From the IMG/VR virus record IMGVR_UViG_2681813316_000026: DNA of 34,941 bases; one strand, 5' to 3'. Shown here piece after piece: positions 26,252-32,313 of the stretch; the first letter of the stretch is position 1; each line of letters starts with the position of its first letter. The position numbers were made by a program, and so were the translations under genes. Under the pieces are notes generated by a model. The model saw nothing but the letters and a program-made list of their open reading frames with translations. It had not been told where the DNA came from and ran no database searches. This DNA is from a virus (taxonomy: Duplodnaviria > Heunggongvirae > Uroviricota > Caudoviricetes).

Positions 26252-26901
26252 GCCGCCATCTCCCTGACCAGTTTTTCCGCCTGCTGGCGAACCTGCGCCA
26301 GAAACGCCTCACCACATGCCTCAAGTTCATCGCGCCCGATGTAGCTGATTGCCGGTCCCTTCCAGGTCTTGTCAAAAACAGCAATAGCACCAGCGAAAAA
26401 AGCTCCTGTCGGTACCTGCTTCTCGTCTTTCGGGATAAACCAGACAGGCAGTTCAAAACCAATACGCCCGCGAATAAAAGCAATATGATCTGCATCTTCC
26501 GGCCACCACACTTCGCTGGTGGCAGCTTTGATCAGGAAAACATAGCGCCCGCCCTTATCACGCATGGCACTGGCATGTTTCATGATGTAACGCATGCCGG
26601 TGATGTATTGCCCCTCATGCTGACTGGCGCGGCTGTATGGGGGATTACCAAAGGCAGCACCTTTAAGCTCCGCAAGACGTTCTGACCAGTCATGCGCCAG
26701 CGCGTTGTCTTCCGCCGTGTAATACGCGGCACATTTGGCGTTATCACCGTCAGTGAACAGATCCAGAACAAACGGACCAAACAAGGTGTTAATTCCCCAG
26801 AAAATGTTGTCCGGCGTGCGCCACTGATCGCCCACTTCCTTCAGTTCATGGGCTGGTTTGTTCCGCAGTTCCACCAGCGCCTGGCAATATTTATTACTCA
26901 T
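26248..26901 (-). CDS. Phage N6-adenine DNA methyltransferase (Dam-like)
   Basis: NPPYS catalytic motif. Probable start ATG at 26901 overlaps the upstream stop (TAATG). Confidence 0.75.
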   Translation of the reverse strand: MSNKYCQALVELRNKPAHELKEVGDQWRTPDNIFWGINTLFGPFVLDLFTDGDNAKCAAYYTAEDNALAHDWSERLAELKGAAFGNPPYSRASQHEGQYITGMRYIMKHASAMRDKGGRYVFLIKAATSEVWWPEDADHIAFIRGRIGFELPVWFIPKDEKQVPTGAFFAGAIAVFDKTWKGPAISYIGRDELEACGEAFLAQVRQQAEKLVREMAA

Positions 26902-28680: not shown

Positions 28681-29246
28681 GCGTTAGTTTCTCCACAACC
28701 AGAAGCAATCGACGCCACGACGCCCGGAGCTGCACACTCGCGGGCGTCATTACTTTCTGAAATGCAAAAAATTTTGTAGACAAGTGCTGCATGCTCCTGC
28801 AGCTTCGAAATTGAGAGATACAGCTCGTCGTTAATTGCTGTCTTCTCATGCGGTTCCACTACACCGTCTTCGATTGCTGAACGAATCTGTTTTGAATAAC
28901 TGCCGATCTGTTCAATGACTTCCAGCAGACGCTGGTTAATATCGGCGTTGTCCACATCCTCGACGTCAGGAAGAGACACAAAGACGCCATTTGCAGACTG
29001 CGCCACAGCATCAGCAATGAAGTGAGTGCCACCAGCACGCTGTAAAACCATTGCCCATCCCAGCGGGAAAATCTGATCGCCATCTGCACGAAGGCGGTTG
29101 AATAAAGCGTTTTCTGTTACATCGAGCCAGTCAGCCGCTTCAGCGTAACCACCCGGCAACGCCGCGATAGTTTTTCTGACAGCTTTCACGTACCACTCAG
29201 GCTGTTTTTCTATTTTCCAGTGATGCTTACCCACGATTAGCCTCAT
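28677..29246 (-). CDS. Putative regulatory protein immediately downstream of cro (CII/YdaT-like position)
   Basis: 189-aa ORF, second gene of the rightward early operon. Assigned by position only. Confidence 0.35.
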
Positions 29247-29277
29247 CGTTCTGTGGTTAAAAATTGAAAGTGTTCTG

Positions 29278-29478
29278 CTAATCTTTCGGATAGATATCCG
29301 GTCTTAAGTCAGATTTCGTAATTGCACCTGACGTGCATTGCTCAAGTTTTTTAGCCAGCACAAAACTGGCTTTTTTATAGCCATTGAAAACCAGCCGTAA
29401 GTAGCCAGGTGTTGAGCCAACTTTTCCGGCCAACTCGCCCTGCTGTTCTTTGGTTAAAGAGTCCCAATACGCTTTCAT
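29278..29478 (-). CDS. Cro-like repressor
   Basis: 66-aa ORF with ATG at 29478, divergent from cI across the operator region, with a helix-turn-helix-like segment. Confidence 0.65.
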   Translation of the reverse strand: MKAYWDSLTKEQQGELAGKVGSTPGYLRLVFNGYKKASFVLAKKLEQCTSGAITKSDLRPDIYPKD

Positions 29479-29481
29479 ACA

Positions 29482-29553
29482 ATATGTACCTCCGGTGTAC
29501 ATATTACATGATTGAAATGAACCTTCACGATACTTGTACCTTAACGGTACAAG
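29482..29553. promoter_or_regulatory. Right operator region between cro and cI
   Basis: Two perfect palindromes sharing the TGTACC half-site: ATATGTAC-N7-GTACATAT (29482-29504) and CTTGTACC-N5-GGTACAAG (29533-29553). Confidence 0.55.
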
Positions 29554-29568
29554 GGTTTTAATTTCGTT

Positions 29569-30243
29569 ATGAAAACAATCCATGACATCCGGCGGTCTAA
29601 CGCCAGAAAACTGAGAGATGGTGTTGGCGGGAATTCTTCCTTTGCCACTATGATTGATCGCGAGCCAACCCAGACCAGCAGGTTTATGGGAGATGGTGCT
29701 ACTAAAAATATCGGTGACAGCATGGCACGACACATCGAAAAATGTTTCGACCTGCCTGTCGGATGGCTCGATCAAGAACACCAGACAACGAACATCACAA
29801 AAAAACCTGATGTTTCAATCACTAATAAACAAATCACATTAGTCCCTGTCATATCATGGGTACAGGCCGGAGCATGGAAAGAAGTTGGATATTCTGAGGT
29901 TGATTTGAGCACAGCAGAAACGTATCCCTGCCCTGTACCCTGTGGGGAAATGACTTATATCTTGCGGGTGATAGGTGATTCAATGATTGATGAGTACCGC
30001 CCGGGAGACATGATTTTTGTCGATCCTGAAGTACCTGCCTGCCACGGTGACGACGTTATTGCATTGATGCACGATACAGGTGAAACCACCTTCAAAAGGT
30101 TGATAGAAGATGGGACACAGCGTTATCTCAAAGCGTTAAACCCAAACTGGCCTGAGCCTTACATTAAGATCAACGGTAATTGCTCTATAATTGGTACAGT
30201 GATTTTCTCAGGAAAACCAAGAAGATACAAAATCAAAGCCTAA
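29569..30243 (+). CDS. CI-type repressor (HTH domain plus S24 LexA-like autopeptidase domain)
   Basis: 224 aa. C-terminal domain with the GDSM serine motif and a downstream lysine. Divergent from the cro-like gene. Confidence 0.85.
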   Translation: MKTIHDIRRSNARKLRDGVGGNSSFATMIDREPTQTSRFMGDGATKNIGDSMARHIEKCFDLPVGWLDQEHQTTNITKKPDVSITNKQITLVPVISWVQAGAWKEVGYSEVDLSTAETYPCPVPCGEMTYILRVIGDSMIDEYRPGDMIFVDPEVPACHGDDVIALMHDTGETTFKRLIEDGTQRYLKALNPNWPEPYIKINGNCSIIGTVIFSGKPRRYKIKA

Positions 30244-30255
30244 TCAATGTTTATG

Positions 30256-30279
30256 AACCTGCTTCGGCAGGTTTTTTTA
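30256..30279 (+). terminator. Rho-independent terminator after cI
   Basis: AACCTGC-TTCG-GCAGGTT followed by TTTTTT, 13 nt after the cI stop. Confidence 0.6.
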
Positions 30280-30282
30280 TAC

Positions 30283-30316
30283 TTGACAATGTACCTTTGA
30301 GATACATAATGTACCC
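30283..30316 (+). promoter_or_regulatory. Leftward-operon promoter analogue (PL-like) with operator half-sites
   Basis: TTGACA at 30283-30288 and CATAAT at 30305-30310. Overlaps ATGTACC-N5-GATACAT and a further ATGTACC repeat related to the right-operator half-sites. Confidence 0.45.
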
Positions 30317-30436
30317 AAGCGAAACAACGAACAGGCAGGACGCCCACGAAGTAGCCGCCTGGGGCATATGAAGTCCAGGATGATTCGTTGAGTCATGTTG
30401 TGCCACTAGGCACTCATGTTAAAGCAGGTGTATGAA

Positions 30437-30712
30437 ATGAAAGTCCAGATTTTAAACAATAACTGTGAAGTCGTTTGGTCATACGACATAGCCGCCCCTG
30501 TAGATCAGAGCGGCGATAGCTGGACCAATGGGAAACATCAGATTATGGCTGGAGTTGTGTTCTCTTTACGCCGTGCTTTGGAACAGGCTGAAGTATTTCC
30601 ATCAGACCCTGAATGGAAATGGCCTTTTTCTATTTGTCCAAATTCGGAGAGCACATTTCAGAAAATTGGTCAGAAAGTCGCACTCGAAGAGCATCAGCCA
30701 ACTGTTTCCTGA
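30437..30712 (+). CDS. Hypothetical protein, first gene downstream of the PL-like promoter
   Basis: ATG at 30437 (MKVQILNNN) with a GGTG ribosome-binding site. AT-rich. 3' end overlaps a convergent ORF. Confidence 0.4.
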   Translation: MKVQILNNNCEVVWSYDIAAPVDQSGDSWTNGKHQIMAGVVFSLRRALEQAEVFPSDPEWKWPFSICPNSESTFQKIGQKVALEEHQPTVS

Positions 30713-30875
30713 TTTTTTCAGGTAACTCGTCGGCATCGCAGAAACAACAACGCTCGATCATGTTGAAAGCCGATTCGTAGAACTGTTTCTGCTGAGTGTC
30801 GCTGAGACAGGAAAAGAGCGACGTTACGATGATTTTATTAATTGCATTATCAAGTTCTTTTTCATCAAAAGTCAT
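30630..30875 (-). CDS. Hypothetical small acidic protein, convergent with the PL-like transcript
   Basis: 81-aa ORF with ATG at 30875 and an AAGGA ribosome-binding site. Contains a CCFC motif. Confidence 0.4.
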   Translation of the reverse strand: MTFDEKELDNAINKIIVTSLFSCLSDTQQKQFYESAFNMIERCCFCDADELPEKIRKQLADALRVRLSDQFSEMCSPNLDK

Positions 30876-31126
30876 TTGATTTTCCTTTTATGTATACGGG
30901 CTTAAAAGGATACCACCGAGCCTGAAGTGGTGAAAAGACAGGCACATAACAGCTAAGTATTTTCAACCAAAGAGAATCCTTAGCGTTGTGGTGAATGCGG
31001 CTCAGCGCACGCGGGTTAAGGTTGAGGCTGACAGTCGACCTTCTGTGGATACCCACCCGCCTGGTGTGCAACCTTCGCCAGGCACCGGGAGGCACCCGGC
31101 ACCACAACTTTATGCTGTGTGTAGTC

Positions 31127-31396: not shown

Positions 31397-31732
31397 TCAA
31401 TACCCCACCGCTATAATGTCCACATTAAATCCCCCGGGACCTGCCTGCCAGATGCTGGCCCCTGTTAATGATTTTGTTTGATGAACAACCGCCACATTTG
31501 CTGGCGATAGTGTTTCAGTTGTTACAGTACCGATATCATTCCAGTTAATTGAGATGGAATAGTTCGTTGTTGTAAACGACCGGGGGAAAGTTATGTGTCT
31601 TGCATTGGTGCCAACAGGAAATCCAAGATAAACACGCTGAATTATCATTCCTCCAGGTAACATAACCCAGTTAGCACCTTCTCCAAAACCAACGTTTATG
31701 AAAATGCAGAAATAACGAGCAAATGGCATCAT
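31397..31732 (-). CDS. Tail-fibre variable C-terminal segment, duplicate of 1490-1785, joined to the pin-proximal flank
   Basis: Residues after the GFGEG crossover junction are identical to the expressed fibre at 1490-1785. The first 13 codons derive from the pin flank. Confidence 0.6.
   Translation of the reverse strand: MMPFARYFCIFINVGFGEGANWVMLPGGMIIQRVYLGFPVGTNARHITFPRSFTTTNYSISINWNDIGTVTTETLSPANVAVVHQTKSLTGASIWQAGPGGFNVDIIAVGY
31679..31704. repeat. Recombinant (hybrid) crossover site
   Basis: TTCTCCAAAACCAACGTTTATGAAAA: left half identical to the site at 1772-1797, right half to the inverted site at 26-51, i.e. the product expected from invertase-mediated exchange. Confidence 0.6.
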
Positions 31733-31758
31733 TCCTGCTTTTGTCAGAGGGATCCACT

Positions 31759-32313
31759 ATGCTTATTGGCTATGTACGCGTATCAACAAATGACCAGAAC
31801 ACCGATCTACAACGTAATGCGTTGAACTGTGCAGGATGTGAGCTGATTTTTGAAGACAAGATAAGCGGTACAAAGTCCGACAGACCAGGACTGAAAAAGC
31901 TGCTCAGGACATTATCGGCAGGTGACACGCTGGTGGTCTGGAAACTGGACCGACTGGGACGCAGTATGCGGCATCTTGTCGTGCTGGTGGAGGAGTTGCG
32001 CGAACGAGGCATCAACTTTCGTAGTCTGACGGATTCAATTGATACCAGTACCCCAATGGGGCGCTTTTTCTTTCATGTGATGGGTGCCCTGGCTGAAATG
32101 GAGCGTGAACTGATTGTTGAACGAACAAAAGCTGGACTGGAAGCAGCTCGCGCACAGGGACGAATTGGTGGACGTCGCCCCAAACTTACACCAGAACAAT
32201 GGGAGCAGGCTGGACGATTAATTGCATCAGGCGTTCCTCGCCAGAAGGTGGCGATCATCTATGATGTTGGTATATCGACACTGTATAAGAAGTTTCCGGT
32301 CGGAGATAAATGA
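31759..32313 (+). CDS. pin: Serine DNA invertase of the Pin/Gin/Hin family
   Basis: Starts MLIGYVRVSTNDQNTDLQRNAL (catalytic serine in the YVRVS motif), with a C-terminal HTH. About 184 aa, GAGGGA ribosome-binding site, directly adjacent to the crossover site. Confidence 0.9.
   Translation: MLIGYVRVSTNDQNTDLQRNALNCAGCELIFEDKISGTKSDRPGLKKLLRTLSAGDTLVVWKLDRLGRSMRHLVVLVEELRERGINFRSLTDSIDTSTPMGRFFFHVMGALAEMERELIVERTKAGLEAARAQGRIGGRRPKLTPEQWEQAGRLIASGVPRQKVAIIYDVGISTLYKKFPVGDK

Follow-up and report, generated by a model that had tools for sequence, protein, structure and literature searches.

In phage lambda, the cro and cI genes are divergent, and the repressor, which carries an S24-type autocleavage domain, is made from a leaderless mRNA. 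Three 17-bp, partly symmetric operators (the right operators OR1, OR2 and OR3) lie over both divergent promoters, with centre-to-centre spacings of 24 and 23 bp and the weakest CI site at the OR3 position, and a second cluster (the left operators, OL) sits on a strong leftward promoter past the end of the cI transcript. I analysed a 34,941-nucleotide (nt) stretch of viral DNA (IMG/VR record IMGVR_UViG_2681813316_000026, here called the window), in which positions 29479-30316 had been proposed to hold an immunity switch, consisting of divergent genes for a cI-like repressor and a Cro-like helix-turn-helix (HTH) protein, operators between them, and an operator-covered promoter resembling the leftward promoter of lambda behind a terminator. 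This original prediction was correct, and the organization of the window shares the lambda features given above, except for the operator spacings and the weak site at the OR3 position. The region is very likely a bistable immunity switch of the lambda type, belonging to the e14/SfV family of prophages. The sequence comparisons described here also make it highly probable that the switch is built on one operator type, the 17-bp pattern TGTACC-N5-GGTACA (N5 being any five nucleotides), present in five copies around three promoters.

The closest described elements, phage SfV of Shigella and prophage e14 of Escherichia coli K-12, are the same element as the window. Over 1.3 kb, the region shares 98.2% identity with the SfV immunity region (U82619.2), and identity reaches 99.8% with the E. 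coli prophages matching the window (>2,000 complete genomes), where the genes are named ymfK, ymfT and ymfL. Depending on query length, this immunity type is found in ∼1,050 to 2,160 of 5,426 complete E. coli genomes, K-12 included, and in the stretch separating the cro and cI start codons a single base distinguishes K-12 e14 from the window. It is therefore an ordinary lambdoid immunity region, already annotated in public records: the SfV GenBank record (2002) marks a 'putative operator region', corresponding to window positions 29484-29552, as well as the cI terminator, and the record of phage Ayreon has a terminator and a promoter annotated after cI. Individual operators and leftward-promoter sites are not resolved in the public annotations. 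In the open literature, no paper mapping or printing these operators was found, and searches with the operator sequence strings also came back empty. What is added here is the single 17-bp consensus, a third OR site, two complete OL sites, and the register of the sites with a mapped transcription start site.

The elements of the switch are as follows, with the promoters named after their lambda counterparts (PR, rightward, for cro; PRM, repressor maintenance, for cI; PL, early leftward):

29278-29478, minus strand: cro-like gene (ymfT homologue, 66 amino acids), an open reading frame (ORF) with its ATG on the complement of 29476-29478; annotated ymfT or cro in E. coli and SfV
29485-29501, unstranded: OR1-like operator, TGTACC TCCGG TGTACA; one mismatch to TGTACCNNNNNGGTACA; core of palindrome 1; -7 to +10 of the predicted cro promoter
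29501-29506, minus strand: predicted PR -10 hexamer, TAATAT; the A at position 2 and the T at position 6 are kept in all relatives
29518-29534, unstranded: degenerate OR2-like operator, TGAACC TTCAC GATACT; three mismatches; putative operator, proposed from its conservation; covers the PR -35
29523-29528, minus strand: predicted PR -35 hexamer, GTGAAG; TTGAAG, TTGATG or TTGTAG in most relatives
29534-29562, plus strand: PRM-like cI promoter; -35 TTGTAC (29534-29539), 17-nt spacer, -10 TTTAAT (29557-29562), start at the A of the ATG (29569)
29535-29551, unstranded: OR3-like operator, TGTACC TTAAC GGTACA; perfect match; core of palindrome 2; -34 to -18 of the cI promoter
29569-30243, plus strand: cI-like repressor gene (ymfK homologue, 224 amino acids), an ORF matching Peptidase_S24 and phrog_4
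30255-30281, plus strand: intrinsic cI terminator; hairpin 30255-30274 (8-bp stem, 4-nt loop), then a T run
30283-30310, plus strand: PL-like early-left promoter; TTGACA (30283-30288), 16 nt, CATAAT (30305-30310); predicted start ∼30317
30290-30306, unstranded: OL1 operator, TGTACC TTTGA GATACA; one mismatch; occupies the early-left promoter spacer
30310-30326, unstranded: OL2 operator, TGTACC CAAGC GAAACA; two mismatches; over the last -10 base and the predicted start

The cro-like and cI-like genes are divergent and separated by 90 bp, as in a lambdoid switch. Two perfect palindromes sharing TGTACC had been reported in this gap, and both are present. Palindrome 1 (29481-29505) has perfect 9-bp arms, AATATGTAC (29481-29489) and GTACATATT (29497-29505), with the seven nucleotides CTCCGGT between them, and palindrome 2 (29533-29553) has perfect 8-bp arms, CTTGTACC (29533-29540) and GGTACAAG (29546-29553), with the five nucleotides TTAAC between them. 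The shared TGTACC is only partly there, as the right arm of palindrome 1 reads TGTACA. Similarly, the TGTACC copies over the promoter downstream of cI, at 30290 and 30310, had been described as half-sites; the copies exist, forming a 20-bp direct repeat of AATGTACC, but each belongs to a complete 17-bp operator (OL1 and OL2, 20 bp apart). The centre spacings in the intergenic region are 33 bp between OR1 and OR2 and 17 bp between OR2 and OR3, which abut. The middle of these three sites (29518-29534) had been overlooked.

In the whole window TGTACC occurs 20 times against 10.3 expected, a count reached in none of 100 shuffles, and the 17-bp pattern with at most two mismatches occurs five times against 0.84 expected, which again none of 100 shuffles reached. 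All five of these matches fall within 29485-30326. One of them, TGTACCCTGTGGGGAAA at 29934-29950 (two mismatches), lies inside the cI coding sequence and has a poor right half (GGGAAA); it is probably due to chance and was not retained as an operator. The OR1-like and OR3-like sites are significant pattern matches, and the middle site is put forward from its conservation. It is plausible that the five operators, which carry zero to three mismatches from the consensus, differ in affinity through their sequence rather than their spacer.

In order to identify conserved features, relatives were gathered as 19 genome loci with a cI 73-100% identical to that of the window (tblastn), with the addition of four phages (SfV, Ayreon, Hafnia yong2 and Edwardsiella EPP-1). 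Among all the distinct relatives compared (22-23), cI identity is 69-100%. The loci come from Escherichia, Pseudocitrobacter, Klebsiella, Atlantibacter, Leclercia, Phytobacter, Enterobacter, Pantoea, Trabulsiella, Kluyvera, Limnobaculum, Rahnella, Edwardsiella and others. For the OR region, 22 unique intergenic sequences were compared with gap-free anchoring, and for the OL region 23 unique sequences; these sets apply to the conservation results below. The OR consensus (its first column is window position 29471) reads a.t.tt..a.aataTGTACCTCCtgtgTACATatTaCA.ga.t.aaATGAACCt.CAAGgtACTTGTACC.....GGTACA.a.t.T.TAAT......atgaAA. The OR1-like site has near-invariant TGTACCTCC and TACAT with variable bases between them, and the OR3-like site has invariant half-sites on either side of a free N5. 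The six bases preceding the cI ATG (N6) also vary freely. Invariant half-sites combined with a free N5 and N6 are a signature of protein recognition.

The OL region shows the same behaviour, with TTGACAATGTACC-N5-G[GA]TACATAATGTACC essentially invariant, the exceptions being one G for A and a few T for C in the TGTACC of OL2. In OL1, TGTACC and G[GA]TACA do not vary, and the N5 between them takes at least 15 different forms; in OL2, the left half is near-invariant and the right half is moderately conserved (GnAACA). For the middle OR site, ATGAACC (29517-29523) is invariant in 22 of the 22 unique sequences although it lies within a promoter spacer, and it is one base off the ATGTACC of OR1, OL1 and OL2. 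In most relatives this site reads TGAACC-N5-GGTACT (two mismatches), with the GGTAC partner at the operator spacing. This conservation suggests that 29518-29534 is a third, intrinsically weaker operator.

The position of the cI promoter can be anchored on experimental data. In nearly all relatives, exactly six bases separate nnTAAT from the cI ATG, TTGTAC being found 17 bp further upstream, and this conserved -10-N6-ATG spacing predicts a leaderless cI mRNA. In K-12, whose sequence is one base off that of the window between the start codons, differential RNA sequencing placed the ymfK start site at the gene start, with a leader of 0 nt (Romero et al., 2014; PMC4681348 Table S3). Between old-coordinate positions 1200691 and 1203043, an interval spanning from beyond ymfJ through ymfL, the ymfK start is the only entry in the start-site list from uninduced K-12 cells (PMC4681348), so both the cro promoter and the early-left promoter are silent without induction. 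Similar inverted-repeat operators lie over both divergent promoters; their overlap with the cI promoter is anchored on the mapped start, and their overlap with the cro promoter on a predicted one. The cro promoter has a predicted start at ∼29493-29496, near 29494. Its -10 appears in relatives as TAATAT, CATAAT, TAGAAT or TATCCT, the -35 is located 16 bp upstream of the -10, and CAAG (complement CTTG) is near-invariant.

The window itself has a C at position 29528, where all 21 other unique sequences, including K-12 e14 and SfV, have an A. The window's 63-mer here had no exact match in the 1,050 complete E. coli genomes carrying the region. Judging from the hexamers, the change from A to C turns the predicted cro -35 from TTGAAG into GTGAAG, and is likely a promoter-down mutation.

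At the other end of cI, a promoter of the form TTGACA-16-CATAAT had been placed directly after the cI terminator, pointing away from cI and carrying the TGTACC copies at 30290 and 30310, and this was confirmed. It matches the promoter consensus at 11 of 12 positions, and both hexamers are near-invariant in the relatives. A second operator cluster is thus found on the early-left promoter beyond cI, as in other lambdoid phages, and in an intact relative the early-left operon extends to an integrase gene. The stem of the cI terminator is kept across genera by paired changes (CCTGC/GCAGG, CCCGC/GCGGG, GACCCGC/GCGGGTC), which supports a functional terminator shielding the early-left promoter from transcription that reads through from cI.

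The proteins also fit the lambdoid organization. The Cro-like protein matches phrog_35, a transcriptional repressor family, with an E-value of 3e-15, has below-threshold Pfam matches to YdaS_toxin and HTH_3, and a weak match to the Cro structures 8co2/8c7k in the PDB (E 0.01). The cI-like protein possesses a Peptidase_S24 domain (E 1.5e-26) and matches the phrog_4 repressor family (E 2e-49). Its C-terminal half aligns to the C-terminal domain of lambda cI (E 2e-9), with the lysine of TFKRL opposite that of the lambda TFKKL. Residues 1-76 weakly match a phage repressor of solved structure (5d50_A, E 2e-3), and the N-terminal domain also matches phrog_12107 (E 9e-13); a Pfam search with the isolated N-terminal 81 residues gave no match, HTH families included. 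By sequence, the repressor has the expected architecture of an N-terminal DNA-binding domain and a C-terminal LexA/S24 autocleavage domain, and Ala100-Gly101, Ser138 and Lys176 occupy the positions expected for RecA-stimulated self-cleavage. The presumed recognition helix, T-Q-x-S-R, is invariant in cI relatives with an N-terminal domain 69-90% identical, which fits the unchanged half-site. Beyond the cro-like gene, the next one encodes a CII-like protein (YmfL).

The two palindromes can be interpreted in other ways. It had been suggested that their different spacers, N7 and N5, mark two kinds of site, one bound by CI and the other by Cro. The outer arms are indeed unlike (AATA...TATT in one, CT...AG in the other), and the maximal perfect arms do leave seven and five nucleotides. 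However, in each palindrome the starts of the two GTAC cores are separated by 11 bp, and both palindromes conform to TGTACC-N5-GGTACA with zero or one mismatch, as the PL sites also do. The perfect N7 form is not conserved: among relatives the right half of palindrome 1 is TGTACA, TATACA, GATACA or GGTACA, so that its inner positions vary between TG, TA, GA and GG, and the GGTACA found in Pantoea (locus L016) is the 'N5' form. The contrast is an artefact, because the limits of the arms are set by the asymmetric innermost base pair of palindrome 1, and this pair is asymmetric because the cro Shine-Dalgarno sequence (GGAGG, minus strand), which sits in the centre of the OR1-like site, constrains it. 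Two kinds of site are therefore very improbable. I find it still harder to believe that the palindromes act as RNA hairpins, with the first masking or exposing the cro ribosome-binding site and the second terminating transcription before cI, even if the Shine-Dalgarno sequence does lie in the 'loop' of palindrome 1, and palindrome 2, together with the GGTTTTAATT behind it, was marked as resembling a terminator. Relatives do not keep this T-rich tail, and the arms show no compensatory changes while the half-sites are invariant, which indicates protein recognition rather than pairing. Moreover, the cro transcript is predicted to start at ∼29494, inside palindrome 1, which would leave the upstream arm untranscribed, and cI transcription, with its start mapped to 29569, begins only after palindrome 2.

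A different question is how many operators there are, and what they do. The OR region may possess only two, with ATGAACC (29517-29523) belonging to the cro promoter or to a site for another factor, such as the CII-like YmfL or a host protein. Consistent with this, the middle site of the window deviates from the consensus at three positions, and every relative has an A, never the consensus T, at the third position of the site. I nonetheless consider this unlikely: ATGAACC is a single base from the ATGTACC of the other operators, a (G)GTAC partner is found at the exact operator spacing in most relatives, and the motif is in a promoter spacer, where RNA polymerase constrains the sequence little. 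Its centre (29526) is also at -43 from the mapped cI start, close to the position from which lambda CI at OR2 activates PRM. A more serious alternative, if still a doubtful one, is that the operators are real but follow another logic, with CI repressing all three promoters, no activation from -43, and OR2 and OR3 either mutually exclusive or forming one extended site. The perfect-consensus site overlaps the cI promoter, and the OR2 and OR3 centres, 17 bp apart (∼1.6 helical turns), are on opposite faces of the DNA. On the other hand, the cI promoter has the only active start in the uninduced lysogen, and OR3 is consequently not fully occupied in vivo; nothing else separates a model of pure repression from the lambda-type switch. 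Several observations count against the latter. The middle site alone is not significant (13 matches at up to three mismatches against 9.8 expected), and the predicted cro promoter is weak (8 of 12 consensus positions in K-12, 7 of 12 in the window) and was missed by a promoter scan. The perfect-consensus site is at the position of lambda's weakest CI site, and with OR2 and OR3 abutting and OR1 and OR2 33 bp apart, the cooperativity rules of lambda are not simply transferable. Finally, binding data for YmfK or YmfT were not found in the open literature.

With the sites, their conservation and the protein domains read directly from the sequences, the lambda-type switch, which I still favour, would operate as follows. 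In the lysogen, dimers of the cI-like repressor (YmfK) bound at the operators would shut both early promoters, while cI itself is expressed from its leaderless mRNA, possibly with activation from the -43 site, and occupancy of OR3 would limit cI synthesis. Upon DNA damage, the LexA-like C-terminal domain of the repressor would self-cleave, and the early promoters would fire. By analogy with lambdoid phages, in which CI and Cro bind the operators with opposite site preferences, the Cro-like YmfT would read the same operators, and would turn off the cI promoter after induction. The assignment of proteins to sites and the order of filling are tentative, and the exact start sites of cro and of the early-left operon are predictions. 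The logic would therefore be like that of lambda, but the half-site sequence is unrelated, the OR spacings are 33 and 17 bp instead of 24 and 23 bp, only two OL sites are evident, the best consensus match is at the OR3 position, and there is neither an N gene nor a nut site after PL in the window.

The result is an operator map for the e14/SfV immunity type, with five sites, three promoters, one consensus and the exact bases to mutate, which makes footprinting, reporter assays and engineering of the switch straightforward. In K-12, both YmfK and YmfT still carry the label 'putative', and what is known of their regulon comes from co-expression alone. The e14 genes have been described as one co-expressed module, activated by oxidative or DNA-damaging conditions (PMC10602906). 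The map would explain why the e14 genes, among them the division inhibitor ymfM, are switched on together after DNA damage.

Directly after OL2, the early-left transcript contains another conserved element, followed by the first gene of the operon:

30327-30388, plus strand: structured leader RNA, 62 nt; helices 30327-30331/30384-30388, 30334-30336/30342-30344 and 30358-30362/30375-30379; within 30322-30394
30416-30712, plus strand: first early-left gene (SfV orf33 homologue, 98 amino acids), an ORF matching phrog_3195 (unknown function), identified with the SfV annotation

The leader RNA consists of a closing helix, a small invariant hairpin, a second hairpin, and the invariant core AGGCAGGACGCCCACGAAGUAGC. 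In 12 diverse sequences, 94% of the cells in the alignment are paired, and nine of the 13 base pairs have changed on both sides. Such a value was reached by none of 500 shuffles, and slid controls gave 22-46% paired. A covariance model (R1) scores the leader of the window at 95.5 bits and its members at 83-95 bits. The single-sequence fold is no better than that of shuffles (z = -0.84), the structure being seen in the comparative data only. RNAalifold initially proposed another outer helix, between the central CGAA and the 3' UUCG, which was dropped since a CCACC/GGTGG swap in phage mEp237 pairs the 5' end with the 3' end. A scan of 29200-30800 against Rfam, at E-values up to 10, returned terminator-like noise and no family for the leader, and a literature search with leader sequence strings found nothing.

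This leader is not restricted to the e14/SfV immunity type. An exact 22-mer of its core is found in at least 120 IMG/VR contigs, where the closing helix has variants such as GCGAA/TTCGC, ACGAA/TTCGT, GCAAA/TTTGC, CCACC/GGTGG and GTCATC/GATGAC. It lies behind at least 59 different promoter/operator contexts, and the TGTACC type accounts for 15 of 118 loci. In most of the 59 contexts, the core begins ∼20-31 nt past the best-scoring -10 hexamer, a promoter-proximal position like that of the put RNAs of phage HK022. It follows the repressor gene in ST64B, YeP2 and ZF40, and in mEp237 it follows a gene for an HTH regulator; leader and gene have the same orientation in all four. The core is also present in the terminal repeat (pre-early region) of T5-like Providencia phages (locus L157, phage PR1, 1201-1240; PSTCR5), upstream of the pre-early genes and in the same orientation, as well as in Aeromonas phage pAEv1818; the module is thus not confined to lambdoid immunity regions. 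In Klebsiella spallanzanii (locus L009, 2237-2290), a deletion fuses the left half of OL2 to the second leader hairpin, with the core lost and an R1 score of 34 bits. This natural 'leader-less' variant could serve as a control.

The put RNAs of HK022 and HK639, whose helix layout was taken from PMC9378689, are the obvious comparison. Terminator read-through by put needs no protein factor, and is blocked by mutations in the beta-prime zinc-binding domain of RNA polymerase. The leader is similar to put in length (∼62 nt against ∼70 nt), starts a few nucleotides after the early-left start, has no N gene evident downstream, and shares with HK022 putL a short 5' motif, CGAAC.GGC, and a GGAUGA motif. 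However, it is composed of a closing helix and two hairpins, without the 5' AGACG/CGUCU pairing of put; blastn gave no match between the leader and HK022 or HK639, and R1 scores at most 7 bits at the put loci. Nor does it resemble a lambda N/nut system (boxA, a boxB hairpin and an N gene downstream of PL), as judged by reading the sequences and with no dedicated model: the loop of the covarying hairpin has 12 nt (GGCRUAYGAANN) instead of the 5-nt GNRA-like loop of boxB, and the first downstream ORF is acidic, lacks an arginine-rich motif, and differs between leader-carrying phages. A second, putR-like copy was sought in the rightward operon of the window and none was found; HK639 is likewise annotated with putL only, so a second copy may not be obligatory. 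A weak match to the leader model at 26435-26499 (plus strand; 13 bits, E 0.07), whose strand is not that of the rightward operon, was put down to chance. In the SfV early-left operon, a simple scan of the transcribed strand revealed no convincing intrinsic terminator, so that any need for antitermination is hypothetical.

One tentative interpretation is that the leader is an undescribed, widespread, promoter-proximal and cis-acting phage RNA that modifies RNA polymerase for read-through without an N protein, as put does, but with a different sequence and fold. It may also, though I put this forward with equal reserve, travel as a module behind many unrelated repressor/operator systems. If the leader is indeed an antiterminator, processive antitermination by RNA alone would be far commoner in temperate enterobacterial phages than the few put examples suggest.

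One notable difference to SfV was identified further downstream, as the early-left operon of the window ends after the orf33 homologue. Homology to SfV stops near 31126, and the sequence beyond (to 34941) contains convergent ORFs, a gene for a DNA invertase (31723-32313), and matches to an insertion sequence (IS) transposase and an AraC-type regulator. The early-left operon is thus truncated in the window, and the prophage is probably defective or rearranged.

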